Origin: a bacterium
GTDB taxonomy: Bacteria; Hinthialibacterota; Hinthialibacteria; Hinthialibacterales; Hinthialibacteraceae
DNA length: 64,000 bases
Reading direction: 5' to 3'
NCBI GenBank assembly: GCA_963663405.2
Contig: CAXXSM010000092.1
Location: 105,404-169,403 of the forward strand
A program made the translations under genes and the position numbers. Below the pieces are notes generated by a model. The model had not been told where the DNA came from, ran no database searches, and saw nothing but the letters and a program-made list of their open reading frames with translations. Positions within the stretch are counted from its first letter, which is position 1, and every line of letters begins with the position of its first letter. Below are positions 13,699 through 63,211 of the stretch, piece by piece.

Positions 13699-14844
13699 AT
13701 GAAATCCTTCATCTTTACAATATTTCTCATTTTTATTTCCACAAACGCATTTCCCCAGAACATTAACACACCAGAGAACTTCCCCGATCCGAACTTTCGG
13801 GCGGCGGTTGAGAAATTTATGGGGGTGGCGCCGGGCGGCGAATTCACGGCGGCGAAAGCCTCTATAAAAGATGGGACATTGGATTGTTCCTGCTATTACC
13901 TTGAGCAAAAAATTGAAGATATGACTGGGATAGAACATTTTCCCGCGTTAACTGGACTCTACTGCTGGAACAATCAATTAACCAGCCTGGATGTCTCCCA
14001 CAACACCGCTTTGGAATTGCTCTACTGCGCGGAGAATCAATTAAGCAGCCTAGATGTCTCCAACAATCTCGCTTTAACTCAATTCTGGTGCGGTGGTAAT
14101 CAATTAACCAGCCTGGATGTCTCCCACAACACCGCTTTGAAAAACCTCAATTGCGGGTACAATCAACTAACCAGCCTGGATGTCTCTAACAACCCCGCTT
14201 TGACTAACCTCTACTGCTATGAAAATCAATTAACCAGCCTGGATGTCTCCAACAACATTGCTTTGACTTATCTCAGCTGTGGTTTTAATCAATTAACCAG
14301 CCTGGATGTCTCCAACAACATTGCTTTGACTTATCTCAGCTGTGGTTGGAATAAATCAACCAGCCTGGATGTCTCCGGAACCACTACTTTGGAACAGCTC
14401 TATTGCGACTGCAATCAATTAACTAGTCTGGACGTCTCCCACAACACCGCTTTGATAGACCTTAATTGCGGGTACAATCAACTAACCAACCTGGACGTCT
14501 CCCACAACACCGCTTTGAAAAACCTCAATTGCGGTGGAAATCAATTAACCAACCTGGACGTCTCCCACAACACCGCTTTGACTATACTCGACTGCTATGA
14601 AAATCAATTAACCAGCCTTTCAAGTCTTGTAACCAACGAAGGTCTTGGGCCAGGAGACGAAGTGGATATTCGAAACAATTACATTGGTTGTGTTGATCCT
14701 GACGCCTCTATGAGTGATATCCAAATTCTTGTAGAGCGATTTGGTGAGGCCGTCTTCGACACCTGGGGAAATCTTGAATCCGGTTTCGCCTTCTCACCCC
14801 AGAAAAGATGTGAAACGGCGGTATTGGCTTGGTCCTTGCATTGA
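13699..14844 (+). CDS. Secreted leucine-rich-repeat protein (21-aa LRRs) with C-terminal TAVLAWSLH motif
   Basis: Signal peptide, FPDPNFR cap, ten NQLTSLDVSxNxALxxLxC repeats. Confidence 0.92.
   Translation: MKSFIFTIFLIFISTNAFPQNINTPENFPDPNFRAAVEKFMGVAPGGEFTAAKASIKDGTLDCSCYYLEQKIEDMTGIEHFPALTGLYCWNNQLTSLDVSHNTALELLYCAENQLSSLDVSNNLALTQFWCGGNQLTSLDVSHNTALKNLNCGYNQLTSLDVSNNPALTNLYCYENQLTSLDVSNNIALTYLSCGFNQLTSLDVSNNIALTYLSCGWNKSTSLDVSGTTTLEQLYCDCNQLTSLDVSHNTALIDLNCGYNQLTNLDVSHNTALKNLNCGGNQLTNLDVSHNTALTILDCYENQLTSLSSLVTNEGLGPGDEVDIRNNYIGCVDPDASMSDIQILVERFGEAVFDTWGNLESGFAFSPQKRCETAVLAWSLH
13972..14617 (+). repeat. Coding 63-bp tandem repeat, 10 full units plus one partial
   Basis: The AATCAATTAACCAGCCTGGATGTCTCC framework recurs every 63 bp (13972 to 14602 = 630 bp). 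Confidence 0.95.
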
Positions 14845-15007
14845 GAAAAAAATGAGGGGTTAATTGACGAGAACAGCGTTTCACGCTAACTAGTGAATTT
14901 TCTGCTTATGAAAATGGCCGGAATCAATAAGATTCCATTTCCATATTTTTCAATCTGCGCGAATTATCAAGTCTCAGTAATTCCACTCGCAAGAAGAGGA
15001 ACACGTT

Positions 15008-15550
15008 GTGTGTCGAGAAGCATTTCTCTCCAGCCTTCAATCCTACACACCTTCCAATGAAAAAGAGATACAGTTTAAAGATTCAATCATAGAGTTTGTA
15101 AGAATAAATCCTTCCTGCTTCGAGAGATCGTCTGAAGATGGACATATCACAGGCTCCGCGTTTATTCTTGATTCCAATAGACATTTTGTATTGTTAACTC
15201 ATCATCGTAAATTGAACAAATGGCTGCAGCCTGGTGGACATGCGGATGGGGAATGCGACATTTATCAGGCAGCGCTGCGGGAAGCGAGGGAAGAATCAGG
15301 ACTGAAAAGCATCAAGCCCATTTCGAAACAGATTTTTGACATCGATATCCATCCAATTCCGGCGCACGGGAATGAACGCGAACATCTTCATTACGATATT
15401 CGATATCTATTTGAAGCGGACCGCGAAGAGGAAATCATTGTTAGCGATGAATCCAACACCGTTGAGTGGAAGCCCATTTGTGATATCGATACGTTGTCAT
15501 TCAATGAATCGATCATTAGAATGGTTCAAAAAATCATTGGGATGAAATGA
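15008..15550 (+). CDS. NUDIX hydrolase
   Basis: GHITGSA, WLQPGGHADG and AALREAREESG Nudix box. Confidence 0.92.
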   Translation: MCREAFLSSLQSYTPSNEKEIQFKDSIIEFVRINPSCFERSSEDGHITGSAFILDSNRHFVLLTHHRKLNKWLQPGGHADGECDIYQAALREAREESGLKSIKPISKQIFDIDIHPIPAHGNEREHLHYDIRYLFEADREEEIIVSDESNTVEWKPICDIDTLSFNESIIRMVQKIIGMK

Positions 15551-15662
15551 TTTTTCATGATATTGTTGCTTAAAAGCGCCAAGTTGTCGGCATCGAAAAA
15601 TCCTTGCACTCGCTTAAACGCGCATGAAAATCAAGCGACCCTAATGTTCTTCCCATGAGTTC

Positions 15663-16685
15663 ATGATGGCTATTCAAAATCGTTTAATCCTTTCCGTTTT
15701 GATTCTAGGTCTATTCGTAGAATTTTCTCGAGCTCAAATCTATCCAGAAAAAGAGTATTTTAATTCCGAAGACCAATCGATTGATACCTATTTCATCTCA
15801 GACGATCATTCACTCATCGTTTTAGGATCCGAGATGGTTCGAATTCTCGACGCAGCCACCAGCGATACGATTCAGACAATTGATCTGAAAGGAAAACGCG
15901 CAAGGAGTCTGTCTCTATCACCGGACAATCAAAAATTACTGATAGGTCTCGATCGAGCGAAAGTCAAATTATGGGATGTCAATAACAATGTAGAAGAATA
16001 CACATTTGAAACATCAACTAAAAACGCTATTTATTTAGGTGGCCCAGCGCCTGTAGTTGCAACGGCCTTCCATCCAGACAATAATATATTTGCAACTGAA
16101 GAGAATTATCCTGCAGAATCATATTTGCAAATTTGGGATATGGTGAACCGAGTAGAATTATTAAGAGTAATGAAACATACCCCTGTGGAGAGATTAATTT
16201 TTTCAAAAGATGGTAGGTACCTGTTAGAACGCTCTCTCCAAGATTCACGCGTCATATCTACTGAAACAGGAGAAATTCTACTTGATGTGAGTGGCGCAGG
16301 AGGAGTACTGTCAGATGATGGTAATAGTTTGTATATTGTTAATACTGGAAGCAAACCTGGTGAAACAGCCATTTTACGAAAATATGAAATAAGTAGTGAT
16401 AAGATAACTTATACATCCGATGAATTTATGTCACTTGGTCCATATATTGAAGTTCTTCCAAATGGAAAATACCTATTAGCGCTGGATGAATCATAGACCT
16501 CATTAGTAATACTCGATATAGAAAACAACGATATTACGCATACACTTGAAAACAAGAATAATGACGAGATTAAATACCACTCCTTTTGGAACAGCGCAAA
16601 TCTGGTTTATGCTTTAAGTGGAAACAAAGTCTATAAATGGAAAATTCCCGGCTTAGATTCAGCTGTAGATTATCCTTTTTTCTAG
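15663..16685 (+). pseudogene. Secreted WD40/beta-propeller protein interrupted by an in-frame TAG
   Basis: Signal peptide and WD repeats (LSPDNQ..VKLWD, FHPDN..LQIWD, FSKDG). After TAG 16494-16496 the same frame stays open for 62 codons to ...VYKWKIPGLDSAVDYPFF TAG at 16685. Confidence 0.75.
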
Positions 16686-16882
16686 ATATCGAGGCTGATA
16701 GCGTTCAAGAATGGGGAAAAAACACTTTCCTATTGTTTCCCGGCGATTCCTCCCAAACCATAAAAATCCTACATCCCCAATTTTTTGCGAAACTATTTCC
16801 AGGCGCCTTCGTTTTTATGAGGGGGATCGATATTCTATTTTGGGATCGGTTGGATCGATTCCATTGAAACAAAGAGATTGAC

Positions 16883-17656
16883 GTGGGAGTGGTTATGAGC
16901 GCGCAAACGGCGGATACGCTGTCCAATACACAGGTTTCGAATGAGAGCCATGTGGATTTCCGCAGGTTCTTTTTAATTGTTTTTAGTGTTGTGGCGGGGG
17001 TAATCCTCGTTGAAATGACGCTGACGATACTTATTGTCAATGTCATAGGCTATCAAGATCTTCCTATCCGGGGCGAGATGATACGGGACGACAAAGGAGA
17101 ACCCTATTTCGAACCGTACTACTCCAATCTCTATTTCCGTTTCCGGGTAGATGAGAACCGCAGAGAACAGCCCACCGAGACGAAACTCACGCGCGCCGGC
17201 GGATTGGCGACGGGGATCTTCTTCTACACCGTTCTGAACGCGCCCCATTGGATCTGGGAGATGAAATTCCGCAACATCGGCGCCATGGCCGCGATCCCCT
17301 TTATTGGAATCGTCTTTGCCTGTTTTTTCTTATACGCGAATTATCTACCCAACCGGCTGAAACCATGTGACAAAGCGGTGGCGTTTTGTACGACGGTGGG
17401 GATTCTGCATAGCTTAATTGTAGGCGCTCTGCTTTTTCTCATCCAATTGTTAGGTCTGATCTGGCCGGATGCGGCGAGCCTTTACGAGTATCCCACAGTT
17501 TATTATGGGCAATTCACCGGCGCCCTTTTGCCCGCCGCTGTCATCATGTTTCTCACTGGCATTGTTTATGGAACCATCACCGGCGTTCTCCTATACCCGT
17601 TCGCGGGCTATGTCACAGCGTTCAACCAGGAATTGGAAAAAGCCAGGAAGGAATAA
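16883..17656 (+). CDS. Hypothetical integral membrane protein
   Basis: Several hydrophobic helices; ends 3 bp before the next gene. Confidence 0.75.
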   Translation: MGVVMSAQTADTLSNTQVSNESHVDFRRFFLIVFSVVAGVILVEMTLTILIVNVIGYQDLPIRGEMIRDDKGEPYFEPYYSNLYFRFRVDENRREQPTETKLTRAGGLATGIFFYTVLNAPHWIWEMKFRNIGAMAAIPFIGIVFACFFLYANYLPNRLKPCDKAVAFCTTVGILHSLIVGALLFLIQLLGLIWPDAASLYEYPTVYYGQFTGALLPAAVIMFLTGIVYGTITGVLLYPFAGYVTAFNQELEKARKE

Positions 17657-17659
17657 TCG

Positions 17660-19282
17660 ATGTGGCGCCGATGGCTTCCACTGCGTTCCGTCCAATGGAG
17701 CCTCGCCGCATTCCTCATTACGCTCCACTTCACACTCGGTATAACCAGCGCTTTGAAAAAAGCGCCCACTGCGGATGAATACTCCTACATCGCCACTGCC
17801 TACATTTATGTAAAAACCGGCGATTTCCGTCTCGACCGCACCCACCCGCCTCTCATTCGTCTTCTAATTGGCTTGCCGCTTCAATTGACTAAACCTTGGC
17901 TGCCCCCCCTCCAGCGGAACCAGTGGGATTCTCCCATGAGTTACACGTACGGTTACCGCCTTGGGTGGGAGATGCTGCTCGCTGGACGCAACGCCTGGGA
18001 GCCAATTCTGCTGCTTGCGCGAATCCCCATCCTTCTGCTTTCGTGCGGTCTCGCATTGCTGCTCTATCTTTGGGCGCGGGATTTGTATGGAGACGCGGGC
18101 GGGTTGCTCTCGCTCTTCTTGTATTGTGTCTCTCCCAATATGCTGGCGCACGCCCGGCTTGCGACGATGGACGTAGGACTCTGTTTTTTCTTCTTCGCCG
18201 CACTCTTCGCATTCTATCACTATTGGAAAACACGCCGCGTGCGTGATCTTGTCCTAGCGGGCGCGATAACAGGATGCGCGCTCGCGGCGAAAGTAACCGC
18301 CGTTCTGCTGCTTCCCCTGCTCGCGGCCGGATTGTTATGGACCTTCGCGCAAAAAGGTGTTTCGCTGAAAACAATCCCTCCCGCGCAATACATTAGCCGT
18401 CTCTCCATCCTGCTGGTCAGCGCTTTGGCCGCGTTGCTGCTCATTTATGGTTTCCCATTCAAGCCTTGTTATTATCTTGATACGGTCTCCAACGTCTTTT
18501 TTAAAGCCACGCATTCCGGCGCGGGAGGAAATGAGATCGCAGGGATGCCTCACCTGAATTACGCGTACTACCTCTTGGGGAATTATTCATCCAAGGGATG
18601 GCCATATTATTTCCTGATCGCCGCGTTGGTGAAAACGCCATTACCAGTTCTTCTTGCGCCGCTTGGTTTATTTCTAGTGAAGCGTAAAAAATGGATGGGG
18701 GCGCCGGATGTGTTGATTCTCGGCGCGATCGGGATTTTGCATGTGGCGGCGATGTTCAACCGCATGAATATCGGTCTTCGGCACGTGCTTCCCTTTTATC
18801 CGTTTCTATTCCTTTATCTAGGCCGGTTAGTCTTCATCGAAAAACGATGGATCAAACAGAGCGTTCTCATCCCTCTCACCATTTGGGCGTTGGTGGATTG
18901 TCTCTGGATCTATCCTGATTACCTCGCCTATTTCAATCCACTCGCAGGTGGACCGGCGAATGGGCAGGCGATTCTCGACGATTCAAATATCGATTGGGGA
19001 CAGGATTTAGCCCGGTTGGGGCCGGTACGAAACCAATATCCAAACGAACCATTTTACGTCGCGACAAATTGGATGTTCGAACCAAAAGCGTTCCACATCG
19101 ACGCCCAACGTCTGCAAGAAGACCAGATCGCCTCTCCCCCAAAAGGCGTTGTAGCGGTGGGAAAACATTGGGCCATCCGGCGCCGGATCTTTAAAGGCTC
19201 TTCAACCTATTTCGACTGGTTTGAAAAATATGAGCCGATCGGTCACGTAGGCCATTCGATTTTGCTGTACCGGTTTGAGTGA
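17660..19282 (+). CDS. GT-C fold (ArnT/PMT-like, GT39/83) membrane glycosyltransferase
   Basis: PTADE, HPPL, SPNMLAHARLATMD, ALAAK, IGLRHVLP, DSNIDWGQD; many TM segments. Confidence 0.88.
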   Translation: MWRRWLPLRSVQWSLAAFLITLHFTLGITSALKKAPTADEYSYIATAYIYVKTGDFRLDRTHPPLIRLLIGLPLQLTKPWLPPLQRNQWDSPMSYTYGYRLGWEMLLAGRNAWEPILLLARIPILLLSCGLALLLYLWARDLYGDAGGLLSLFLYCVSPNMLAHARLATMDVGLCFFFFAALFAFYHYWKTRRVRDLVLAGAITGCALAAKVTAVLLLPLLAAGLLWTFAQKGVSLKTIPPAQYISRLSILLVSALAALLLIYGFPFKPCYYLDTVSNVFFKATHSGAGGNEIAGMPHLNYAYYLLGNYSSKGWPYYFLIAALVKTPLPVLLAPLGLFLVKRKKWMGAPDVLILGAIGILHVAAMFNRMNIGLRHVLPFYPFLFLYLGRLVFIEKRWIKQSVLIPLTIWALVDCLWIYPDYLAYFNPLAGGPANGQAILDDSNIDWGQDLARLGPVRNQYPNEPFYVATNWMFEPKAFHIDAQRLQEDQIASPPKGVVAVGKHWAIRRRIFKGSSTYFDWFEKYEPIGHVGHSILLYRFE

Positions 19283-19344
19283 AACAATGGGGGAAAAGAG
19301 AAAAAGATCGACTCAATTCAACCTTGATCGGAATTATACACATT

Positions 19345-22250: not shown

Positions 22251-22257
22251 ATACACC

Positions 22258-22316: not shown

Positions 22317-25109
22317 TCAGTAGTTTTCCCACAGAGACGCTTTCGAATCAGTAAGAGTATTCGCATCGGTGACAACGTGCAGGAAGAAATCCTGTTCGAC
22401 CGTGTATTCTTCATTAATAATGGCGAGCAGGCGGACAAAGGCGCCGGCCGCGTTGTCAGGAACTTCCCAGTATAAAGTACCATCTTCCAGAATCGTCATT
22501 CCCTCCGGACCGTCGAGTAATTCGAAGGTCACGGTTTCTGGATCCGCCAACACGCTGGGTTGATAGGAGAACAACGAATTTTCATGAACCGTCGAAGCGG
22601 GATACGTAATGAAAACGTGCGGATGCTCGTCAAGCCCCGATACAACATGGGGACTTGCGACGTTAACGGTAAATTCCTGAACGGCCTCTTCGATCCCCAG
22701 TCCGTTATCCTGCGCGTAATGATCGACCAGTTTGATCGTAACGGCATGGTTTCCTATCTGCGCCTCGGTTGGTGTCCAAAGAAGGGTTCCCGATTCGTGA
22801 ATCGTCATCCCTTCCGGCCCTTGGACAATTTGCCATTCATACGATACATCGGTTAAACTGTCCTGAACCAGATGATGGAAATCGGCGTCGAAAAAGACAG
22901 GATGATAGAAATAGGGTTGGTTGGCGACCGCGTTTGTTTGGGGTTTGGATACGATGTACGGATGGTTGTTCCCCTGCGCGTTATGGGGTACGGCGCGCAC
23001 AATCGTAACCGGTTCCGAAGAATAATTGTCTTGATTCACAGCGATTACCGAGAACAAGAAAGGCAATCCGTTCGGCAGCGAGGGAATCGTTACACTGTTC
23101 ATTTCCGGTGGAAGCGCGATCAGATGCGTCAACTCCCAATGATCGCCTTCCAAACCATATAGAATATTGTACTGAACCACGGTGGGATCATCGAGTGTTT
23201 TCCATGACAATTTGACGCTTTGATCCCCTTCGTACACGGCAATATCCGTTATATTTTCGGGGGAATTCGGATTTGAGATATGGACAGGAATAGGGGAATA
23301 CGCGTACTGAGGAGCGTTGACGCCATCGTCGATTCTCGCGTATACGAAATAATAGCCCGGCGCGAGATCCCGCTCATTCGCATCCAGAAAAATGGTATTT
23401 TCCTCACCATCTTCTTCTGCGCTGGTGATGAAAAATCCGTCTTCCCCTTCCTGATCGGTATCGAGATAGAAACGAATTTCCGCATTATTATCGGAATCTT
23501 CATCAAACCAGGTCACTTCGAACACATTCGAAGTCTTGGTTTCGGTTATCGTTTGAATCTCCACATACGGCATATCATTTTGGATCAGGGTTTCCACACT
23601 GTATTCCCCTAGTTGATCCGCATTCGAAATGGTGACAGTATACGAACCGGGATCCGGCTGATGAAGGAAGAAACTGGCGTCGTTTCCTTCCAGATTCATA
23701 ATGCTGAAACCGGCAATATTCTCATAACCAACGGGCAGCAAACCATCGGCGATATCCAAAATCGTTCCGTCCGGCAGAGTCAGAGTGGCGTCGACATTCG
23801 TCACATCGTCATTGGCGTATCCAATACGGAAGATGACGGCGGGGACGCCTTCATCGAGCGTAAATGATGTAACCGGCTCCCCAGTGGGACGAATTTGGAA
23901 TGTCCGCATCGAGTTTTTCGTCAAGGTTCGATTCAACACAGACCAGTTCGTCATAAACCGGAACGCCTGACCGCTTTTAGGATCTACATAAACTTTATTG
24001 TTGTTAAATTCCCAAGGATTCTCCGGTTGATTTTCGCTCAACGAGAATGAAATATCTCCATCCATAAACGAGAATCCAACATTGATGCTGAAATACGCGG
24101 GATTCGGCACACACACATCCGGAAGACAAACTTCCGGCCCACAGCCGACAATCGGCAGGCAGGGGGGAACGTGGGAACAACCACCCGGCGTACATAATTT
24201 TTTGGGAAGTGGAGCCACTGAAACGCTGCCGGAAAAACCATGCGTGTTAATAGTCGCTTTCACTTCACCGACGGATATGCTGCCCACGACGGGCAATGAG
24301 GGAGTCTGCAAATCACCCGTTAACGTACCTTCGAAAGTATTACGATCGATCACGAAATGGATATCCGCTGAATAGATAGAGACGAATTCAGCATGGGCGT
24401 CAACCGTAAGCCGCTTTTGGGAAGGCAGAAAAACCGCATTTAGCGTGTCCCCTGTATCCACGCCAAAGACCTTCGCCGATCCGTTTATATCAAATTGCCC
24501 GGCTTCAGCAGCGATCGATGATTTTAGATGAATGACAAATTCAGCGTCGATTTCAAGCGGACTCACTAACAATCCGGCGTCTCCAATGTCCGGGCCGGCT
24601 GTGATACCGACTCGCCCGGAAAACGTCTCATCGGAACTGAAGCCTACTAATCCAAGAATTTGATTTTTTAATTTATTCGCGGCGTTCAACATCATACACA
24701 CGATATCAATAGAATTTTTGGGCACGCAAACGTCCGTGATTAAAGCGTTCGAATACCCGATTCCAATAGAATCAAGAAACGCCCCGGTATCGGCGATCGG
24801 GATATTCAATCCGCTGACCTCCGCATCAAGTTTTAACAATTGTTCATTGCCCGCGTCATATTCGATATCCGCGTCGAAGCCGTATAGGCTATTCTCCCCT
24901 TCTTCTGGGAAATAGGGAATTTTTAGCACCGCGTGGCCCTTATAGATATCATCCGCCGCATCGTACTCGAGACTGACTCCCGATAACGCGCCGACATAGG
25001 GAAGAGAAATATCCGGTGTAATCACAATTTCTTGGGCGGGAACAGTAGATGGCAATACCAAAACACTAACCAATACAACGAAACGGATCGAAAAAAACTT
25101 CTTCATCAT
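22317..25109 (-). CDS. Large secreted modular protein (beta-rich N-terminus, Cys-rich segment, Fn3 and putative Ig repeats) ending SKASLWENY
   Basis: Signal peptide from MMKKFF (25109); VKLSW..YNILYG..FSVIAVN Fn3; two GPEGMTI..G.L.W Ig repeats. Confidence 0.85.
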   Translation of the reverse strand: MMKKFFSIRFVVLVSVLVLPSTVPAQEIVITPDISLPYVGALSGVSLEYDAADDIYKGHAVLKIPYFPEEGENSLYGFDADIEYDAGNEQLLKLDAEVSGLNIPIADTGAFLDSIGIGYSNALITDVCVPKNSIDIVCMMLNAANKLKNQILGLVGFSSDETFSGRVGITAGPDIGDAGLLVSPLEIDAEFVIHLKSSIAAEAGQFDINGSAKVFGVDTGDTLNAVFLPSQKRLTVDAHAEFVSIYSADIHFVIDRNTFEGTLTGDLQTPSLPVVGSISVGEVKATINTHGFSGSVSVAPLPKKLCTPGGCSHVPPCLPIVGCGPEVCLPDVCVPNPAYFSINVGFSFMDGDISFSLSENQPENPWEFNNNKVYVDPKSGQAFRFMTNWSVLNRTLTKNSMRTFQIRPTGEPVTSFTLDEGVPAVIFRIGYANDDVTNVDATLTLPDGTILDIADGLLPVGYENIAGFSIMNLEGNDASFFLHQPDPGSYTVTISNADQLGEYSVETLIQNDMPYVEIQTITETKTSNVFEVTWFDEDSDNNAEIRFYLDTDQEGEDGFFITSAEEDGEENTIFLDANERDLAPGYYFVYARIDDGVNAPQYAYSPIPVHISNPNSPENITDIAVYEGDQSVKLSWKTLDDPTVVQYNILYGLEGDHWELTHLIALPPEMNSVTIPSLPNGLPFLFSVIAVNQDNYSSEPVTIVRAVPHNAQGNNHPYIVSKPQTNAVANQPYFYHPVFFDADFHHLVQDSLTDVSYEWQIVQGPEGMTIHESGTLLWTPTEAQIGNHAVTIKLVDHYAQDNGLGIEEAVQEFTVNVASPHVVSGLDEHPHVFITYPASTVHENSLFSYQPSVLADPETVTFELLDGPEGMTILEDGTLYWEVPDNAAGAFVRLLAIINEEYTVEQDFFLHVVTDANTLTDSKASLWENY

Positions 25110-25396
25110 ATACCAATCTCCAATCATAGATCGAATAAATTTCATGTAATTTAACATTATAGCGATCTTTTTCAAATATATTCAAATATAGTTATTGAAA
25201 AAGAGAAAAAAATAGGTAGAAATGTGGAGGATTATCCTCAAATTATACGAGAACATGCTACAAATCAGCGTTCCGTATATATATAAACGATATGATTTAC
25301 TACTTGTCTACAACCAATTCTTCTCTAACATTTTTTTATAATATTTTTTATACATAATAAAACTGAAATAAAACAAAATGGAGCCACTAAAACAAT

Positions 25397-26023
25397 ATGA
25401 AAATCCGTAAGATGACATTCGCCTTCACGCTAATCGAATTGTTAATTGTCGTCGCCATCATTGGTATTCTAGCGGCGATCGCGGTCCCCAATTTCCTCAA
25501 TGCGCAGATTCGGGCCAAAATCGCGCGATGTAAAGCGGATATGCGTTCGTTCGCCACGGCGTTTGAATCGTATTATGTGGATTGGAACACATTCCCCGAT
25601 CCCGCGTGGGATTATGATATCATGGCCTTCCGTGGATTTCACAAATTAACGACACCGGTGGCGTATATGAGCAGCATCCCCGACAATCCGTTCGGGGAAT
25701 CGATGGAAAATTCAGGGGAAATGATGAAAGGATACGAATACGGCGCGGGCAAAGCGGGCGTTGGAGCCCGGATTCATCCGATGAACACTTACATTTTTGA
25801 ATCACATGGCCCCGGGAAAGTCGAACTCACCCACGGCTCAATCGCGACAATGTCCTATCCCGGCGGCGGTTGGCAAACCTATGACGCGGCGCGTTTACTC
25901 GGTCTCATCTATCATCCTTCTAATGGCGTGAACAGCCGGGGTGAGATCATTTCCGTTGGTGGTATAGCCCCTCCCGAACCAGGCGTGAACCGGTTCTTCC
26001 AAGTTGTAAAGGGTGGATTGTAA
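25397..26023 (+). CDS. Prepilin-type N-terminal cleavage/methylation domain protein (pseudopilin-like)
   Basis: AFTLIELLIVVAIIGILAAIAVPNF with E at +5; LTTPVAY; YHPSNG motif. Confidence 0.92.
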   Translation: MKIRKMTFAFTLIELLIVVAIIGILAAIAVPNFLNAQIRAKIARCKADMRSFATAFESYYVDWNTFPDPAWDYDIMAFRGFHKLTTPVAYMSSIPDNPFGESMENSGEMMKGYEYGAGKAGVGARIHPMNTYIFESHGPGKVELTHGSIATMSYPGGGWQTYDAARLLGLIYHPSNGVNSRGEIISVGGIAPPEPGVNRFFQVVKGGL

Positions 26024-30998: not shown

Positions 30999-31964
30999 TT
31001 AATAAAGTGACCAAGTATTCACTTCTGAGGTTTCCAGTTGTTCAACGACAAAATTATCCCACAACGCCCAGGCTCGATCTTCCCCATTCGAACCAAATGG
31101 ATCTTCGTGAGCGATTAAAACGCGTCCAGACGTATAGGTCATATCGGGATCTGTATACGTATGAACCTGAACGCCATTCAGAAAAACAGTGACGGTTCCA
31201 TCGACGTATTCCATCGAGACGGTCACCCAACGGTTTCCTGGTGAACCGATAAAATGATCCGCTGCATCCCCAGGGAATAATTCCGCAAATAACGCGTCGT
31301 TGTTTTCTCCATTGGACTCCAGAAGCACACGGCAATCACTAATCGCCGCTGGATCGGCGACTGCCCATTCCCCACAGGAGAAATTGGCGCCGGCGGAACC
31401 CTCTGGGAATCCTTCCGTAAATAAATAATCACCACGGGATCCAGAATCCCCATCCGAATTCATCGAAAAGAAATACCCATCCGATTGGCTGGGTAAATCA
31501 TTGCTGTCGGGCGCATAGACAAAACCTTCCCAACTCACGACAAGATCGCCGCTCTGATAGATTCCGAAATTGAAATTCTCCGTCGTGCCGGAGGTTTCAG
31601 GAATGAAATTCATATACACGTCAACACTCGCTCGAATGTTCCCTGAAAACTCTTCACTGGTATAAAAATTGATCACATCAGCCGTATTATATCCACCGAC
31701 ATTGGCATATACCTGCACGCCTGTGGTCGAGCCATCCGTGGAATTCGGAGCGGGAGAGATTCCCATATCCGAATAATCAACAAATTCCCAAAAATGCTGG
31801 AATCCATCTGGATCTTCTGGATTCTCATAAACTAGAATATCAAAGTTATTTTCAGAATCAGCGCTGTCAAATCCATCGGTGAATAAAACGGTCTGTGAAA
31901 AACAGAGGGGAGAAGCAAAAAGAACTGCCATTGCAAACAGCCAAAAAGTAGTTTGTTTCAGCAT
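30999..31964 (-). CDS. Secreted acidic protein, probable ConA/LamG-like beta-sandwich, ending SEVNTWSLY
   Basis: Signal peptide, SD GGAGG; WVTVSM..VTVFLNG..SGRVLIAHED..WDNFVV pattern. Confidence 0.8.
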   Translation of the reverse strand: MLKQTTFWLFAMAVLFASPLCFSQTVLFTDGFDSADSENNFDILVYENPEDPDGFQHFWEFVDYSDMGISPAPNSTDGSTTGVQVYANVGGYNTADVINFYTSEEFSGNIRASVDVYMNFIPETSGTTENFNFGIYQSGDLVVSWEGFVYAPDSNDLPSQSDGYFFSMNSDGDSGSRGDYLFTEGFPEGSAGANFSCGEWAVADPAAISDCRVLLESNGENNDALFAELFPGDAADHFIGSPGNRWVTVSMEYVDGTVTVFLNGVQVHTYTDPDMTYTSGRVLIAHEDPFGSNGEDRAWALWDNFVVEQLETSEVNTWSLY

Positions 31965-32065: not shown

Positions 32066-32620
32066 TTATATGCCTTCCGGCATAGAATGAATAAATCCTT
32101 TTTGAGAAATCCATATATTGCCATTGCTGATCAATCCATTTGAAGGATCGTAGCAACGCGCTCCATAGGCCCCATTAAAATACGTTTGGTCTGGGCCATA
32201 AGAGCAGGCGCGCCACATCCCATAATGCTTCAGAATGTTTTCCGGCCATCCATATTGTATTATATTATGGTATGTATAATACAATTCATCCTGCGCCGCT
32301 TGATCCGGATCATTGGCGCGCACAAAAGGATCAACTAAAAGCCCCGATGAGAGATAGGCGACCGGTGTCGTTAAGTTATATCGTATATACCCATTCGTGG
32401 GATCGCCGATGGATACATTGGTATTGGGCGGGGGAGAGTTGTGATCCAGTGTATACATTTCAACCGCGGTCGAGACAGCTTTTAAATCCGATTCCGCGCG
32501 GGCTACTTTAGCGCGCATTTGTGCATTTAAAAAATTAGGAACAGCAATCGCCGCGAGAATTCCAATGATGGCGACAACGATAAGTAATTCAATCAATGTG
32601 AAACCCGTTTTCAACTTCAA
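32066..32620 (-). CDS. Prepilin-type N-terminal cleavage/methylation domain protein
   Basis: GFTLIELLIVVAIIGILAAIAVPNF; LTTPVAY; SYGPD; YDPSNGLISNGNI. TTG start with SD GGAG. Confidence 0.92.
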   Translation of the reverse strand: MKLKTGFTLIELLIVVAIIGILAAIAVPNFLNAQMRAKVARAESDLKAVSTAVEMYTLDHNSPPPNTNVSIGDPTNGYIRYNLTTPVAYLSSGLLVDPFVRANDPDQAAQDELYYTYHNIIQYGWPENILKHYGMWRACSYGPDQTYFNGAYGARCYDPSNGLISNGNIWISQKGFIHSMPEGI

Positions 32621-55901: not shown

Positions 55902-58703
55902 TCAATCCACCTGCCACACAAGCCGGAACCCAATCGCCACAAACCGGTTGTTAGGTAATTGAGCCGATCGCTTCGCGGAGCGGCAGAAGACCGCGTCACT
56001 GCTCCAACTGCCTCCCCGGACCACTTTATGCGATCCGGTATCCGATCCCTGTGGATTCTGTTTCTTTTCTGTGGAGTACGTGCCGTACCAATCATTGCAC
56101 CACTCGAAAACATTACCGTGCATATCAAACAGACCGAACGCGTTCGGCTCTTTCAATCCCACTTCTTTTGTGCCGTACTTATACTCTTCGTAATTATTGT
56201 TCCCCAGCCACCACATATGAGTATCGAATTCCTCACAATAATCACTTGAACTGTCACTGCAATCCAACGCGTCTCCAAACGAAAAGCGGGTCTGCGTTTC
56301 CGCACGGCACGCGTACTCCCATTCCGCTTCGGTGGGAAGACGGAATAAGCCTTTCCTGACCTGATTGTTCAATTCCGTAATGAATGCTTGACAATCATTC
56401 CAAGACACTGTCTCGACTGGATTGTTTAAACTGCTCCCAAACCAGGATGGATTGCTGCCCATTACAGCGCGCCACTGTCCTTGCGTGACTTCATAGGTTC
56501 CGATATAAAAATTGCGCGTCATTTCGACGTCTTTGATTAGCGTCTCGTCAAATTCATGCCCTCGTTCCTCTTCCGGGCTTCCCATGTCAAACGTCCCTAA
56601 CTCAATCAACGTCAATTTTAACGGTTTCAAATTCCCCGATACACCTGGCAGCACAACCAATAAGGAATTCCCTCCCGGTCCGGACGGGACTAACGTATAT
56701 GGATTCATCGGAACCGGGGTCGATGTTGGTGTCGCGGATGGAGTGCGCGTGGGAGAAGGCGGCGCTGTCGGGCTGGGCGTGGGAGTAAAATAGCTCACGT
56801 CCTGATAGTAATACAAGACGCCACTCACCAGATAATCATTCTCCCCTTCACGGGGAAGCAGAACAGCCCGGAATTGATACGCTTCATCGTGTTGGGGACC
56901 TGAACGGTATTTTTCCGCGGTATAGAATTCATTTTTCGAAGACCAGAGGAAATAATTCGTTTGATTATCGTTGGTCTGACCGAGATGTTCGAATTTCTCT
57001 TCCCCTTCCCGCCGGACCTGCACGTGATACTCCAAAACAGCGGATGGGTCAACCGCAAAATTCCATGCGATATTGATCGCCGCGCTGGATGGTTTATCCA
57101 TGTCCATTCCGACGCCCCCTGTCGGAGCCAAATCATCTCCCCCCAAGATATCATCATAAATGACGATCTTCCGCCGGTTTAAATTGGGAAACTCGGGATT
57201 GGATAATTTCACCGCGCTGCTCCCCAAAAGATTGAATCCTACGGGATACGTCTGCTCATAAAAATCATCCGAAGTTAGATGATCGTCAATTCGAATCACC
57301 CGAAACATGTACGACGAATTGAAACTCGGTCCGTTTTTAAATTCGGAACTCAAATTCGGTTCACCGGGATACCAATCATACCGGCGGCTCTCGCCATTCC
57401 CCGTTCGGCCTAAATACTTCTTCCCACCAAAGCCCGTTCGGACATAGACGTGCCAATCAGAAGCGGTTTGGGAAGAATCCTCCCATCGAATTGTGAGCTG
57501 CCGGTCCTCAACGGTGTCAAAATCCGTCGATCCTGTCAGATCGACATACGCCGCCTCATCATCCGTCACAATCAATTGTTGAAATTCGATTGCAACCGTT
57601 GGCTCGGATGTAGGCGTAGAACTCGCAGTAGGGCTGGGAGTAAAAGAAGGGACGATCGTCGGTAAAGTGGGATCGCTTACGACTTCAACAGATATTTCCT
57701 GCTGACTGAAATGGCTTCCATCATACGCGTAGACCACGAACGAATAAACGCCCAATTCAGTTGTATCCAATTTAAATTCCGTAAAATTATAATGCGGCAC
57801 ATTTTCAATGGATGTAAACCAGGCGCGGGCGTTTGGAGATAGCCAGACATCAATCGAATCCCCATCATCCTGGTCATACGCGACGACCAGCACGATCACT
57901 TCCTGTCCTTGCAGAATCCGGTATTTCTCTTCGGGGATCACAAGCAGCAATGGAGGATGGTTGCCGGGACGAGGCGTGTTGGTCGGCGTCGGGGTAAACC
58001 GGGGATCAATCGTCGGCGTCGATGTGACAGCGATAGTCGGTTTAATCGAGGGCGTATGGGTAGGTGTCTGTGTCGGACTCGCTCCTTCCGTCGGACTAGG
58101 ACCTTGCGTTGGTGTATATGTTGAAGTAGGTGTGGGCGGCTCACCCGATGTACTGATTGTCAACGTCGAATTGGCAGGAGACATCGGGATTGCGCCATCA
58201 TTTAAACGGGATAGACTGGAATCGAAGGTCAGAGGATAAACTCCATCCGCCGCGTCCCCTTTGATCAGTACTTTAAACGACATCAACACACCCGGTCCAC
58301 TGGAAAGCGCCGGTTCGATCCCGGCGGTCTGCGTAAAGATCACAAAGCCCCGCTGTTCGGTTAAATTATTCTGAACCATCGGGCTCCACAATGCCGTCAA
58401 CGCGTCAACGCTCGATCCACTATCCGTAACAAATGCAAAGGGATCGTCCGGATCCATCTGGACCGCGACTCGAAAGGAACTAACGCCTTCCGCGTTATCA
58501 ATCGAGACCTTAATCGTCACTTCATCACCGGGCCGTCCAACTAGATTCGACGAAAAGGAGATCGTTCTCGATTGCGCAAGGGCGTTGACCTGAAATTGCG
58601 CGGTCACAACGAAGAAAACCACCAAACGAGAGAAATACAGAACAAAGCGTGGCGATGAATTCACGGCAATCCTCTTTCTCCTCTTCCGTTGATCGTTCTC
58701 CAA
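55902..58703 (-). CDS. Secreted protein: cohesin-like domain, Thr/Pro linkers, two unknown repeats, C-terminal FGE-sulfatase (SUMF1) domain
   Basis: GRPGDEVTIKVSIDNAEGVSSF cohesin; FDMGS, YEVTQGQW, RLPTEAEWEYACR, FGLFDMHGNVFEW, RGGSW, IGFRL. Start uncertain. Confidence 0.88.
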   Translation of the reverse strand: MENDQRKRRKRIAVNSSPRFVLYFSRLVVFFVVTAQFQVNALAQSRTISFSSNLVGRPGDEVTIKVSIDNAEGVSSFRVAVQMDPDDPFAFVTDSGSSVDALTALWSPMVQNNLTEQRGFVIFTQTAGIEPALSSGPGVLMSFKVLIKGDAADGVYPLTFDSSLSRLNDGAIPMSPANSTLTISTSGEPPTPTSTYTPTQGPSPTEGASPTQTPTHTPSIKPTIAVTSTPTIDPRFTPTPTNTPRPGNHPPLLLVIPEEKYRILQGQEVIVLVVAYDQDDGDSIDVWLSPNARAWFTSIENVPHYNFTEFKLDTTELGVYSFVVYAYDGSHFSQQEISVEVVSDPTLPTIVPSFTPSPTASSTPTSEPTVAIEFQQLIVTDDEAAYVDLTGSTDFDTVEDRQLTIRWEDSSQTASDWHVYVRTGFGGKKYLGRTGNGESRRYDWYPGEPNLSSEFKNGPSFNSSYMFRVIRIDDHLTSDDFYEQTYPVGFNLLGSSAVKLSNPEFPNLNRRKIVIYDDILGGDDLAPTGGVGMDMDKPSSAAINIAWNFAVDPSAVLEYHVQVRREGEEKFEHLGQTNDNQTNYFLWSSKNEFYTAEKYRSGPQHDEAYQFRAVLLPREGENDYLVSGVLYYYQDVSYFTPTPSPTAPPSPTRTPSATPTSTPVPMNPYTLVPSGPGGNSLLVVLPGVSGNLKPLKLTLIELGTFDMGSPEEERGHEFDETLIKDVEMTRNFYIGTYEVTQGQWRAVMGSNPSWFGSSLNNPVETVSWNDCQAFITELNNQVRKGLFRLPTEAEWEYACRAETQTRFSFGDALDCSDSSSDYCEEFDTHMWWLGNNNYEEYKYGTKEVGLKEPNAFGLFDMHGNVFEWCNDWYGTYSTEKKQNPQGSDTGSHKVVRGGSWSSDAVFCRSAKRSAQLPNNRFVAIGFRLVWQVD

Positions 58704-59000: not shown

Positions 59001-59032
59001 TGAACTGATTCATCGATATCTTTAGGGATACG

Positions 59033-62000
59033 TTAGTAGAGCCCCCACGTATCAACCTCTGTGTTTTCCGCCAAGTCGATCGCCGCGACTTCCTCCGCTG
59101 TCAATTGAATATTGCCGTCATTAATTCTTGTCAACGTTGGATCGACTTCCAGCAGGAGAGCGTCTCCCGATGGATCTTGACCGGGCGCTGATCCCACTTC
59201 CACGGACAGAAGATTATTCGGTCCCGCTGGAAGAGGCTGACTGAGCGCACAGACAACCGCATATTTCCCGGCAGTTAGATTGTTCGTCACCATCCGGCTT
59301 TGTGAATCACCAACGAGAAGTTTACAGGAATCATCGTTCACCACGAGCGATTCACTATCATAATTGAGGATCACTCTCAAACTTTGAATCCCACTCGCAT
59401 CATCCACTCCCAGTTTCACCAGCCAAGCGGTTTGGGAACCTCCCACTGGTTCTACTGAGGCGATCATCTTCACAAGGGGAACCACGCCTGCGCCAGTCCG
59501 GCTCCTGCTCTTCGACGCCTGATCCTCCGGCCCATATCCATCGTGATCGGTATCCGCCGGGAAGTATTCAATGAGGAATGAATCGTATTGTATCAGCAGA
59601 CCGGCGTCGTACGCTCCTGTTACGCCATCCCCACTGACATCCGCCGAAGGCGGCGCGCTCGGAGGCGAAATGCTCCATGGCGCGCCGTTCCACGGAGCGG
59701 GCCAAGCCGTAAGCATGAAGATGTCGTTTTGAAGGATATAGTTCGCATCCAATGTACCGGGAATGGAGTCATCATTCACATCACCCCACATGAACAATCC
59801 ACTGCTGCCCTCATACCCAACCCATGCGATGGGGGAGGGGAGAATCCCCTGGCGGTCGTTATACGCGCCTTCCGGTGTCAGGGACTCGGATGTTTTCACA
59901 TGCGTTAAATCACCTTCCGTGATGTTCGTCGCGATGACCTTATTCTGATCGACAAAAGATTTGATCAACAAATTCGCGTTCGTCTTCGAAAGCGAGTCTG
60001 TGGAGCACTCAATTCGAATCTCCGCAGGCACATCATGTGTCACAACACCTGTAGGGAACGTAGCGGTAAATTGGAACAACGCCCCTTCACCAGAGGACAG
60101 TCGTGGATTCGTTCCCCGCTGACCAGTGACGATTGTCCACGTTTCACCCGTTGGAATTGGATTCGGAACACTATTACCAAATGCGGTTTCATATGAGGCC
60201 TTTGTATACTGTGAGAAGTTCGTCAAAGCCCAATCTATCGTCGCCGTGTTCGTAACCGCCACGGTATTGATCGCGACCCGGTTATCCGTCGCCGCGAGAA
60301 CGATACGGAAGGAGCCGACTCCGCCCAAATCATCCATTCGCACGGTAAATGTTTTATCCGAGCTTGCCACACCTCGATCAATGTAATTACTGAAATCTGG
60401 CACAACGGAAAGTCTAAAATTACCACCACTGGCGACCGGATAAAGACGTCCCGAACCATCCGCGCTGCCCGAAAGCATCGTTTCTCCATTGTTCGAGAAA
60501 GCAACCGAATTCAGCGCCCCGTTGCTCGTGCTGAAGGTCCGGACCAAGGCGCCACTTGTGATATCCCAAATCTTACCCGTGTTATCCTCACTCCCGGAGA
60601 CGATCATTGTTCCATCCGCGGAGACATTCACGGATGTGATCGTCTTCGAATGCGCGCTGATTTGGCGGTTCAATCCACCCGACGCGGGATCCCAAACGAT
60701 CAAGGTTTCATCATCACTGCCAGTAATCACAGTACCGGAATTCGGTGTGAAGACACCTACAGTGACTTCATCAATATGACCCGTCAACGTGGATACCAAA
60801 GCGCCTGTCGAGACATTATAAACATACGCGATGTGCGCATTCGCATCCACACCACCTGTCAGCAAGTAATTCCCGTCGGGTGACAAAGCAAGGAATCGCT
60901 GCATAATAGACGAGCCGATCTGCGTGCCATTGTATTGCCAAAGCCGGACGGTTGTTCCACCAGGACTGGCGGTGATCACGACTGAACGGTCGGCTGTGAA
61001 CGCGACGTTCGTTACATTCCCCGCATGCGCATATTCACGAATGTACGAGCCATCATTCGCATCCCACAACCGGGCTTTGCTGTCTGAGTGACCCGTCAAC
61101 AACCGCTCCCCATCCGCCGAGATCGCCACACTCAATATTTCACCCATCAAACCAGACGGATCTTGATCGATTGTAAAGGCCGCCGCTCCGGTGCTGACCA
61201 CCCACATTTTCGCGATCCCGTTCCCCGATTCATCAGCCCCCCCTGTAAATAGGTAGGTTCCATCGGGGGAGAAGACACCGTCATTGGCTCGTATTGCAGA
61301 GTCTTGCGCGCCAGTGTCAACCGTCCATAATTTCCCTGTGCCATCATCCGTAATTGTCAAGACTTGCGATTCATCCGGAGAATAGATACTCTTAATGATC
61401 GCGCTTGTGTGCCCTTCAATCAAATCACTGATCTCACCCGTGTGCAGGGTCCACAAATTCATCGCTTGACGGTCAACAGTCAGTAATTCCCGGAAGTCCA
61501 GCGATGTATCTAAATAACGTCCTGAAAAAGTATAAAGAATCGCGCCGGTGCTCACATTCCAGGTTTTTGTATCCGTGCTGCTGCTCGTGAGCGCAATATC
61601 CGCTGTGGGTGAAAAGACGACACTATTCACCGCTGAAGTATGCCCATTCGCGCCGGATAGTGTAAAGAGCGCCACACCGCCCGCCGCGTTCCAGATAATC
61701 GCGGAATTGTCATCACTGCCGGTCAACGCCCGGCTGGCGTCGTTTGATAACGAAACGCTGTTGACGTTGTCCGTATGACCGGTCAGTGTCTGCACTGTCC
61801 CCGCGCTGTAATTCCAGAATTTCGCCGTATTATCCTTACTCCCGGTCAAGACCAACGTACTGGCCAGCGTGCCGGTGTTATATAGATCAATGCTTGTGAC
61901 ACCGTCCGTGTGCCCATCCAATCCAGCGAACGTACGAATTACATTTCCTGTCGCGGCGTCCCACAGTTTGGCGGTAGCGTCATCGCTTCCCGTAAGAATC

Positions 62001-63211
62001 CAATTCCCATTGTCAGAGAATTGAGCGACCTGAATTTCACCGGAGTGACCGGTTAACGTTCGTAGCACGTTACCCGTAATGGTGTTGTACAACACCGCGT
62101 CTTCCCAGAGCGCGGTCAACACCTGCGTCCCATCCGGTGAGAACGCGAGGAAACGGCCATTGTAGGTTTGCAGTGTCGTACCAGACGTGGCTTCTACAAT
62201 CCGGCATGTCGCCGCCCCCGAATTGTTCCCCGCCATAATCCACTTGTTGTTCGGCGAAAATCCGACTAAGTCATAAATACTCGTGCTGCTCTCCCAGCGC
62301 ATCATTTGCGCCGTATACCCGTCCCATAAGAAAGAACCAAGCCCCCCACCAGAGACAATCTGCTTCCCACCCAAACGCTGATCGGGAGGTAGAGTGGCGG
62401 CTTCTTTCGTAAACTTAGCCGCAGCGACCGAACCCAGTCCGAGAATTTTTTCACCGTCAGAGCCAAACAACGGCGTCGTATCCGGTTCGCCTGATTCATA
62501 AAATTTAAAGTTTCGGAAGTGTTTTCCCTGCGTGGCGTTTCCACCTTCGAACTGGATATAGAAACTCGTCACAGCCGCGATCGTGGTCGCGACTTCCGCC
62601 GGGGTCAACGTCGAGTCTTCAAACTGGATCGCCACTTCATTATCCACAAACGTCGTGACGTAAACAATCGTATTCGCGGCGACAGCGGGATCGGGATAGG
62701 ATTCCATCTCGATTTTCACATGCCGCCATGTGTCCAGATCGAAATCCGTCTGATTCAAATTATACGTGCCGACTCGATCGTATAAGGTATTGGCTAAATC
62801 AACTCGTTCCAAGTACCATTTCCCCGCGTCGACACCGGGATTTCCCATTGTTAAACGGTAATGCCGCAACGAAGCGGATGTAAGATCCGCAGGTAAGAAA
62901 TTGATAATTCGCCGCCCTTGATTCCCGTCTCCAGAAATCTTCGTTTCAAATTCCCAGACTCCGCTGAGCGCAGCTGGGGCTTGAATCGCTGGATTCCAAA
63001 TCGCGACACCGGTTCCATTGATAACCGTATTCGCGGCGTAGTACATCTCATCCCCATCCACATGAAACCACGGCGCATTATAAGTATAAGACCAATGCGC
63101 AGAATCCACAGTATAGGGATAATAACGAGTGTAATCGGCTTGGGCAGTCATCACGCTGCCGAGCACCGATGCGAATGCAAATAGTAATATGACCGTCCAC
63201 AGTTTTCTCAC
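59033..63211 (-). CDS. Secreted WD40 repeat protein with cohesin-like and dockerin-like domains, ending TEVDTWGLY
   Basis: Signal peptide; many GH..V....FS.DG..LTGS.D.TA..W repeats; GDVNDDSIPGTLDANYILQ and ADVSGDGVTGAYDAGLLIQY EF-hand-like pair; cohesin-like segments on both sides. Confidence 0.9.
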   Translation of the reverse strand: MRKLWTVILLFAFASVLGSVMTAQADYTRYYPYTVDSAHWSYTYNAPWFHVDGDEMYYAANTVINGTGVAIWNPAIQAPAALSGVWEFETKISGDGNQGRRIINFLPADLTSASLRHYRLTMGNPGVDAGKWYLERVDLANTLYDRVGTYNLNQTDFDLDTWRHVKIEMESYPDPAVAANTIVYVTTFVDNEVAIQFEDSTLTPAEVATTIAAVTSFYIQFEGGNATQGKHFRNFKFYESGEPDTTPLFGSDGEKILGLGSVAAAKFTKEAATLPPDQRLGGKQIVSGGGLGSFLWDGYTAQMMRWESSTSIYDLVGFSPNNKWIMAGNNSGAATCRIVEATSGTTLQTYNGRFLAFSPDGTQVLTALWEDAVLYNTITGNVLRTLTGHSGEIQVAQFSDNGNWILTGSDDATAKLWDAATGNVIRTFAGLDGHTDGVTSIDLYNTGTLASTLVLTGSKDNTAKFWNYSAGTVQTLTGHTDNVNSVSLSNDASRALTGSDDNSAIIWNAAGGVALFTLSGANGHTSAVNSVVFSPTADIALTSSSTDTKTWNVSTGAILYTFSGRYLDTSLDFRELLTVDRQAMNLWTLHTGEISDLIEGHTSAIIKSIYSPDESQVLTITDDGTGKLWTVDTGAQDSAIRANDGVFSPDGTYLFTGGADESGNGIAKMWVVSTGAAAFTIDQDPSGLMGEILSVAISADGERLLTGHSDSKARLWDANDGSYIREYAHAGNVTNVAFTADRSVVITASPGGTTVRLWQYNGTQIGSSIMQRFLALSPDGNYLLTGGVDANAHIAYVYNVSTGALVSTLTGHIDEVTVGVFTPNSGTVITGSDDETLIVWDPASGGLNRQISAHSKTITSVNVSADGTMIVSGSEDNTGKIWDITSGALVRTFSTSNGALNSVAFSNNGETMLSGSADGSGRLYPVASGGNFRLSVVPDFSNYIDRGVASSDKTFTVRMDDLGGVGSFRIVLAATDNRVAINTVAVTNTATIDWALTNFSQYTKASYETAFGNSVPNPIPTGETWTIVTGQRGTNPRLSSGEGALFQFTATFPTGVVTHDVPAEIRIECSTDSLSKTNANLLIKSFVDQNKVIATNITEGDLTHVKTSESLTPEGAYNDRQGILPSPIAWVGYEGSSGLFMWGDVNDDSIPGTLDANYILQNDIFMLTAWPAPWNGAPWSISPPSAPPSADVSGDGVTGAYDAGLLIQYDSFLIEYFPADTDHDGYGPEDQASKSRSRTGAGVVPLVKMIASVEPVGGSQTAWLVKLGVDDASGIQSLRVILNYDSESLVVNDDSCKLLVGDSQSRMVTNNLTAGKYAVVCALSQPLPAGPNNLLSVEVGSAPGQDPSGDALLLEVDPTLTRINDGNIQLTAEEVAAIDLAENTEVDTWGLY

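Follow-up and report, generated by a model that had tools for sequence, protein, structure and literature searches.

A short C-terminal tag on exported proteins of Hinthialibacterota and of a second phylum, a candidate surface sorting or docking signal

The window analysed here is a stretch of 64,000 nucleotides (contig CAXXSM010000092.1 of assembly GCA_963663405.2, positions 105,404 to 169,403) from an uncultured bacterium of the phylum Hinthialibacterota, and it encodes secreted proteins that share a short C-terminal tag of nine to ten residues. A preliminary description of the window had noticed this ending on four proteins and had taken it for a secretion or surface-attachment signal. The tag is confirmed on about 160 to 190 proteins of the genome and in two phyla. 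On the evidence of the sequences, we propose that it is a sorting or docking signal of the envelope surface that works without a transmembrane (TM) helix, and we put the probability of this reading at about 0.55. In the window's genome, which is large and polysaccharide-degrading, the tag marks ~2.5% of the predicted open reading frames (ORFs).

C-terminal sorting tags are the features by which annotators and cell biologists recognise surface proteomes and, to our knowledge, the discovery of each has until now opened the way to a new machine for processing or transport. The present tag comes without TM helix, folded domain or barrel strand, the features by which the known machines recognise their cargo. 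A search of the literature found no paper on such a tag. The phylum corresponds to OLB16, now Candidatus Hinthialibacterota and once placed in Omnitrophota, according to PMC9324843, the main text of which has 0 occurrences of "C-terminal" and 0 of "secretion". The closest named matches to the CysRS of the window, at 68-73% identity, carry the labels Candidatus Omnitrophota, Omnitrophica or simply "bacterium"; Poribacteria, to which the protein atlas had pointed weakly as the source, was considered and rejected.

Occurrence of the tag in the genome

The genome of the window comprises 8.44 Mb in 170 contigs and is 82% complete. ORFs of at least 80 residues were called and a greedy non-overlapping set of 7,079 was selected, the unselected ORFs numbering 11,883. 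The pattern given in the preliminary description matched 97 of the 7,079 selected ORFs compared with 2 of the 11,883 unselected ones. Counting Trp alone, position -4 was occupied by this residue at 285 ORF ends, for ~117 expected and 76 to 159 at the neighbouring positions.

A position-specific matrix was built genome-wide and iterated, converging on 157 to 162 ORFs. With the iterated matrix, only 1 of 21,237 random internal 14-mers reached a score of even 4. The 9-mer matrix was scanned over 2,357,009 positions and yielded 156 matches at the exact C-terminus and 27 with one residue behind the tag. Two, three and four residues behind the tag were found in 4, 2 and 3 cases, respectively, no match had 5 to 30 residues behind it, and 21 matches lay deeper in the protein. 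The single extra residue of the 27 proteins is nearly always polar. The refined consensus reads (E/P)-[TVS]-x-[VI]-x-[DN]-W-x-[LVIM]-[YFH]-COOH, the conserved positions of the matrix being 0, -1, -3, -4, -6 and -8. At the DNA level the matches differ at synonymous sites, which therefore indicates selection on the peptide. The motif occurs far above chance.

Carriers of the tag and their export

Once the tail was removed, the 162 carriers were distributed over 71 BLAST families (44 singletons), the largest of which have 27, 15, 12 and 9 members. A signal-peptide-like N-terminus was detected in 127/162 tagged ORFs and in 2,357/6,917 others, corresponding to an odds ratio of 7.0 (p = 5e-30) under a crude rule that counts membrane proteins too. 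Within the limits of that rule, the enrichment of the tag among exported proteins is as anticipated by the preliminary description. Of the 35 carriers without a signal-peptide-like N-terminus by this rule, about 10 evidently have a signal that escaped it, and most of the others start in the middle of a domain, which fits a frameshifted assembly in which split GspD genes are also seen. A Tat-like (twin-arginine) N-terminus was found in 1/162 carriers and a lipobox-like one in 1/162; the carriers mostly have Sec signal peptides of the signal peptidase I (SPase-I) type.

Sulfatases account for 68 domain matches in the genome. They include 38 full-length ORFs, of which 1 is tagged and 1 weakly tagged. 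From the sulfatases it follows that the tail marks a subset of exported proteins and not export as such. The 38 full-length sulfatases themselves start, for the most part, with Tat and not Sec signals.

Pfam domains were assigned to 40 family representatives. The matches comprise CBM9, LRR, LTD with CotH, WD40, LamG/ConA-like, FG-GAP, NHL and beta-helix domains, as well as FGE-sulfatase-type, papain-type protease, GH5 and esterase domains, and 20/40 representatives had no Pfam match. The named cargo domains are typical surface or extracellular modules.

Nature of the tail

Several tails stand directly behind Pro/Thr linkers. The ConA-like protein encoded from position 30999 of the window (hereafter the 30999 protein; the other window proteins are named likewise) was compared with its homologues, in which the core of the tag is kept in 7/7 cases with invariant Val and Trp and with a variable linker. 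In 2/7 homologues the last residue is non-aromatic and one extra polar residue is present. The AlphaFold model of the 30999 protein has a predicted template modelling score (pTM) of 0.81. Its last confident strand, at residues 300-309, belongs to a beta-sandwich, and residues 314-321 are modelled as coil with a predicted local distance difference test (pLDDT) score below 50. From this model and from the tails behind Pro/Thr linkers, the tail is predicted to be an unstructured, autonomous add-on.

Searches of the whole window proteins against Pfam and NCBIfam, with E-values up to 1 and 0.1, retrieved flanking domains only. Fourteen tails of 50 residues were searched against the same databases with E-values up to 10, and no model fell on the tag. 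Both statements of the preliminary description on novelty thus agree with our results: in Pfam and NCBIfam, no existing model covers the tag on the 14 tails at E-values up to 10, and the tag fits no known C-terminal signal, being without TM helix, basic tail or folded C-terminal domain (CTD) and differing from the beta-signal used in this very genome.

The tag and alternative anchors

We inspected the ends of proteins related to tagged ones. Among the best 120 relatives of the LRR protein of the window, 5 end in the tag, 31 have PF18962 (the CTD of type IX secretion, T9SS), 6 have SLH domains and 2 have dockerins, and at least 5 were seen by eye to end in a TM helix followed by a basic tail.

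In one scan of the tails, the NCBIfam choice-of-anchor Q domain was matched just before the tag. Choice-of-anchor families take their name from domains that precede alternative anchoring signals. The genome has 13 choice-of-anchor Q domains. Where 12 to 16 residues remain behind the domain, as in 4 proteins, the tag is present in 4/4 (3 strong, 1 weak); among the other choice-of-anchor Q proteins of the genome, 3 stop 5 residues past the domain and the rest run more than 100 residues further. Elsewhere the domain is followed by TM helices with basic tails (genomes G173, G082 and G185), by a T9SS-like end (G214) or by a dockerin (G033), and within this phylum by the tag or close variants of it (G032, G009, G003 and G006). 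Dockerin-like motifs were also searched for in the last 90 residues of all proteins of the window's genome; 16 proteins have one, and 0/16 are tagged. Judging from these sequences, the tail appears to take the slot that is held elsewhere by T9SS CTDs, by signals of the LPXTG or PEP-CTERM type, by SLH domains and by dockerins.

Distribution across genomes

The tag was counted in other genomes with a DNA pattern formed by the tag and a stop codon, which misses the forms without Asp/Asn. This pattern gave 78 matches in the window's genome versus 3 for a reversed-pattern control. In the phylum of the window, represented by 35 species genomes of one class, at least 10 matches were obtained in 31/35 genomes (range 10-78, controls 0-9), and the four remaining genomes had 1-8 matches. 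The poorest of them, G028, was considered as a tag-free genome and discarded as such, 2-3 tag-like ends without Asp/Asn being present in a 393-kb sample of 330 ORFs. The DNA pattern therefore under-counts there, and the phylum holds no clean negative. Searching for the 30999 protein family in five tag-poor genomes gave no match.

In other phyla, 0/201 genomes reach 10 matches of the DNA pattern. Nine were found in G064, a genome of another phylum, and all nine are perfect tags (V-x-D-W-x-L-Y/F), the form used there being G-V-x-D-W-x-L-Y/F. Three of these matches were inspected (loci L131, L135 and L139): in two cases the ORF starts with a complete signal peptide, and in the third it extends beyond the locus. 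In the phylum of G064, 28-29 of 75 genomes have at least 8 matches. The tag-rich families are f36 (8-40 matches), f188, f196-f199, f202 and f203, and the tag-poor ones are f189-f195, f186 and f201 (0-4 matches). The use of the tag in this second phylum is a new finding. The preliminary description had called the signal lineage-specific, which is right as far as its spread through the phylum is concerned (31/35 genomes, versus 0/201 elsewhere, with at least 10 matches) and wrong in that a second phylum has the tag too. Since its spread is patchy in the second phylum, phylogenetic profiling there is a tractable way to look for a reader.

Proposed function

A surface sorting or docking signal could act through the following steps. 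The protein would pass the inner membrane by Sec and lose its SPase-I signal peptide, as the N-termini of the carriers suggest. It would fold in the periplasm with its last ~10 residues unstructured and exposed, in line with the structure model and with the tags that stand behind Pro/Thr linkers. The free peptide could then be bound as an extended strand by an outer-membrane or surface receptor. In such a strand the conserved Thr, Val and Asp would lie on one face and Trp and Leu on the other, in addition to the terminal aromatic residue. The receptor would either pass the protein outward or retain it at the cell surface. Of these two forms of the function, non-covalent docking to a surface receptor seems slightly likelier than export through reading by a type II machine. 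The secretion or surface-attachment function suggested in the preliminary description is thus the best supported reading, and we infer it from the position of the tag and from its cargo.

Several observations weigh against this reading. The support for sorting or docking is positional and comparative throughout, and no receptor, transporter or processing enzyme was identified among the type II, prepilin-like, PDZ and radical SAM candidates. The choice-of-anchor argument comes from 4 proteins of this genome and a few loci in others, and it depends on the meaning given above for the family name, for which no definition was found in PMC11878542. In 27 proteins one extra residue is tolerated behind the tag, and this speaks against a reader for which the aromatic residue must present its carboxylate in fixed register. 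PF18962 and PEP-CTERM (PF07589) had no match in the genome, a weak negative as the controls matched nowhere. Finally, the genome is 82% complete and contains frameshifts.

A more ambitious proposal, which we advance tentatively and with the odds against it, is that diderms of the Planctomycetes-Verrucomicrobia-Chlamydiae (PVC)-like kind possess an undescribed pathway from periplasm to surface, for which the tag is the recognition signal. As a linear export or attachment signal of ~10 C-terminal residues without TM helix, used in at least two phyla, it would be the first of its kind, and its reader would be either a new outer-membrane translocon or receptor, or the type II machine. If the type II machine were the reader, that system would at last have the linear secretion signal long sought for it. 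If the tag is an address label, the secreted and surface proteome would become definable from sequence alone, the peptide would provide a handle to fish out the envelope machine, and a very small portable tag would be at hand.

Alternative explanations

The tag could be a linear type II secretion signal, read in the periplasm by the vestibule of GspC-like and GspD N-domains or by the pseudopilus, possibly through prepilin-like proteins, the carriers leaving by the secretin. The genome encodes 7-8 secretins, at least three clusters with GspG/J/K/L-M-like, GspC-HR-like and GspD genes and a Tad cluster, together with prepilin-like proteins that number 128 by an N-terminal regular expression and 153 by BLAST family. 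A prepilin-like gene is the immediate neighbour of 16/162 tagged genes, compared with 5.2 +/- 2.2 in random sets (maximum 12 in 300 draws) and with 6.2 +/- 2.3 (maximum 13) for untagged signal-peptide-like genes. The order of a pilin-like gene followed by a tagged ConA-like gene, as in 32066 and 30999 of the window, recurs in G021, which belongs to a different family of the phylum. Across the 35 genomes the prepilin count correlates with the tag count (rho 0.67), but genome size does nearly as well (rho 0.63) and related genomes are non-independent. Moreover, no genome of the phylum, not even the tag-poorest, is without secretins or without the prepilin-like family. In the second phylum the prepilin-like counts (10-131) are independent of the tag, with equal or higher values in the tag-poor families, and secretins are found in 75/75 genomes, the fewest (2-4) being in the tag-rich f36. 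A T2SSK match was obtained in 3/13 f36 genomes, a weak indication given that the model is short and unspecific. The link between the tag and the type II or prepilin-like genes is a mild one, of adjacency only and with no co-variation. In PMC10128026, type II substrates are described as requiring a Sec or Tat signal and as having no known shared signal. We consider type II recognition of the tag unlikely.

The ending might instead be the recognition motif of an enzyme that modifies or clips the C-terminus, either a B12-dependent radical SAM enzyme acting on the Trp or the terminal aromatic residue before export, or a processing protease. Known radical SAM maturases act on a C-terminal Val-Tyr, as in mycofactocin. 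Here, 3/14 genes of a class-B (B12-binding) radical SAM family lie directly upstream of tagged genes in the same direction, others of the family are at most three genes away from a tagged one, and for one of the genes the best model is tryptophan 2-C-methyltransferase, at 255 bits for a cut-off of 500. These adjacencies are a weak lead for modification: 3/14 is barely above chance (~0.75 expected) and emerged after many families had been inspected, the scores all fall under the family cut-offs, the family is heterogeneous, and most tagged genes have no radical SAM neighbour. A modification would also still require a purpose, which could again be sorting, and we see only a small chance that it accounts for the tag. 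Smaller still, in our estimate, is the chance of a periplasmic quality-control or stress signal that directs the protein nowhere and is read by a PDZ protease, in the way that DegS of E. coli reads the YxF ends of unassembled porins. A C-terminal aromatic residue after hydrophobic ones does resemble PDZ ligands, the genome encodes ~11 PDZ proteins, and there is some enrichment of extracytoplasmic function (ECF) sigma genes in the vicinity of tagged genes (8/25). However, PDZ ligands follow a 0/-2 rule, with which the conserved positions 0, -1, -3, -4, -6 and -8 disagree; an extra residue stands behind the aromatic one in 27 proteins, with 85% at the exact end; and the TonB-dependent receptors of the genome have another ending, a classical beta-signal. 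Nor would this reading account for the range of cargo or for the anchor slot. A last reading, coincidence by chance or composition or else a structural cap kept by common descent, could have been suggested by the small number of window cases in the preliminary description. Chance and composition are refuted by the pattern, matrix, family and position-scan counts. With 156 exact-end versus 21 deep internal matches in 2.36 million positions, 71 unrelated families, 78 versus 3 matches of the DNA pattern and its control, conservation in two phyla and a tag modelled as free coil in the 30999 protein, the probability left to coincidence, descent or a cap is negligible.

Window proteins and neighbouring genes

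The coordinates of the tagged and neighbouring genes are collected in Table 1. The C-terminal sequences of the four proteins from which the motif had been proposed were read from the ORFs exactly as quoted, and signal-peptide-like starts were found in 4/4, as stated in the preliminary description. The strong tag is present in the 13699, 30999 and 59033 proteins, so that the list of four was right in part; the 22317 protein has a divergent form only. We set it aside as divergent because its score is 2.7 and because the ends of its relatives are off the consensus: Trp is found near the end in 10/11 of them, mostly as W-x-x-[LMI]-polar or similar. Its end is at best a divergent, doubtful form of the tag. 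The remaining 43/47 window ORFs score -15 or less with the matrix, so that no other window protein has the motif.

Table 1. Tagged genes, related features and neighbouring genes (coordinates refer to the window unless a contig is named)
Feature	Position	Strand	Length (residues)	Matrix score	Remarks
LRR protein	13699..14844	+	381	23.8	signal peptide; LRR_4 match
Tag TAVLAWSLH of the 13699 protein	14815-14841	+			stop codon at 14842-14844
SAVDYPFF, followed by a stop	16659-16682	+			3' of the in-frame stop of the WD40-like ORF 15663-16496; not a member
Large secreted Ig/fn3-domain protein	22317..25175	-		2.7	end SKASLWENY
Second prepilin-like gene	25397..26023	+			near the 22317 gene
ConA-like/3-keto-disaccharide-hydrolase-like protein	30999..31964	-	321	20.1	signal peptide
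Tag SEVNTWSLY of the 30999 protein	31002-31028	-
Prepilin-like gene	32066..32620	-			on the same strand as the tagged 30999-31964 and directly upstream of it; GspG/PilA-type N-terminus
Large secreted WD40 protein	59033..63211	-	1392	18.0
Tag TEVDTWGLY of the 59033 protein	59036-59062	-
Radical SAM gene	C88:6431-7831				outside the window; upstream of a tagged gene
Radical SAM gene	C88:49691-51571				outside the window; upstream of a tagged gene
Radical SAM gene	C92:78358-79782				outside the window; upstream of a tagged gene

The ending SAVDYPFF had been listed as a variant of the motif on an interrupted WD40 gene. It has no Trp and its register is off by one, and it was not counted. The WD40-like gene itself (15663-16682, + strand) has an in-frame stop after codon 277, behind which the frame stays open for ~60 more codons, and is either a pseudogene or an assembly error. 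The 59033 protein had been described as a WD40/dockerin protein. Its WD40 propellers were recovered by a domain model; the dockerin-like repeats were seen by eye only, without confirmation by a model. The adjoining gene (55902-58703, - strand) encodes a protein of 933 residues with a cohesin domain and a C-terminal FGE-sulfatase-type domain, and the two proteins could be a cohesin-dockerin pair. Elsewhere in the genome, at C6:23-37 kb, a tandem family comprises at least five proteins that end in near-identical double dockerin-like repeats.

The prepilin-like proteins have ~200 residues; LTTPVAY, DPF, S-x-GPD and YD-x-SNG-x-x-S-x-GD are their conserved motifs, and their N-terminus is of the GspG/PilA type. 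Their pattern has 29-210 matches per genome across the phylum of the window and 10-131 in the second phylum. A complex prediction for the tagged 30999 protein and its prepilin-like neighbour (32066-32620) scored 0.00, which is no answer and carries no weight either way. Type II clusters are located at C118:113-116 kb (L062), C133:24-28 kb (L068) and C29:1-11 kb (L065), with GspC-like proteins that have an HR-type domain and no PDZ domain. GspD is split into pieces in two of the clusters, probably by frameshift errors of the assembly. The PDZ domain of GspC was considered as a reader of the tag and rejected: the GspC-like proteins have the HR-type domain only, and 0 of the ~11 PDZ proteins adjoins a secretin.

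Comparison with known systems

The WxL domain of Gram-positive surface proteins is C-terminal, spans ~150 residues or more and contains two WxL motifs. The tag differs from it in having 9-10 residues and a single W-x-L, and no such Pfam family was matched on the 14 tails at E-values up to 10. In a eukaryotic nuclear system, the WD40 propellers of Groucho/TLE bind the C-terminal motifs WRPW and VWRPY. The tag resembles these in being a Trp peptide at the very C-terminus that may be read as a linear motif, and secreted WD40 propellers are unusually common here. Unlike in the Groucho case, nothing in the present data connects the secreted propellers with the tag, which several of them carry themselves.

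The beta-signal of outer-membrane proteins likewise places an aromatic residue after hydrophobic ones at the extreme C-terminus of a Sec-exported protein. However, it forms the last strand of a barrel, with alternate hydrophobic residues and usually a terminal Phe, whereas in the tag Leu and Tyr are neighbours, Trp stands at -4, and the cargo consists of soluble lectin, LRR, propeller and enzyme domains and not of barrels. The two TonB-dependent receptors of the genome end in ...SVSATF and ...GITARF, both classical beta-signals. The carriers resemble type II substrates in being Sec-exported, folded, soluble hydrolases or binding proteins, and the organism has several type II clusters. In PMC10128026, by contrast, type II substrates have no known linear signal and their recognition is presumed to be conformational.

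As in the LPXTG/sortase, PEP-CTERM/exosortase, GlyGly-CTERM/rhombosortase and MYXO-CTERM/myxosortase systems, a short C-terminal signature is found on many unrelated proteins with signal peptides. Like these tripartite signals, the tag is lineage-wide, and it follows choice-of-anchor domains and surface modules in the position that they occupy. Unlike them, it has no TM helix or basic cluster behind it, the protein ending 0-1 residue after the motif. Another difference is that no membrane-embedded processing enzyme can be inferred, no search having been aimed at a sortase, exosortase or rhombosortase. No curated model of a tripartite signal (e.g. PF07589) matched the 14 tails at E-values up to 10.

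The T9SS CTD (type A, PF18962/TIGR04183) also occupies the extreme C-terminus of Sec-exported surface cargo of diderms, LRR proteins included. It is a folded beta-sandwich of ~75-100 residues, whereas the tag would be 9-10 residues of coil, and neither the whole window proteins nor the 50-residue tails match the CTD model. The dockerin, in turn, is a C-terminal module that fastens secreted enzymes or binding proteins non-covalently to a scaffold. It consists of duplicated calcium-binding repeats of the D-x-N-x-D-G type over ~60-70 residues and has the cohesin as its partner, and the tag, in contrast, is without such repeats. Dockerin ends and tag ends are alternatives in these genomes, as the 0/16 overlap and the dockerin behind choice-of-anchor Q in G033 illustrate.

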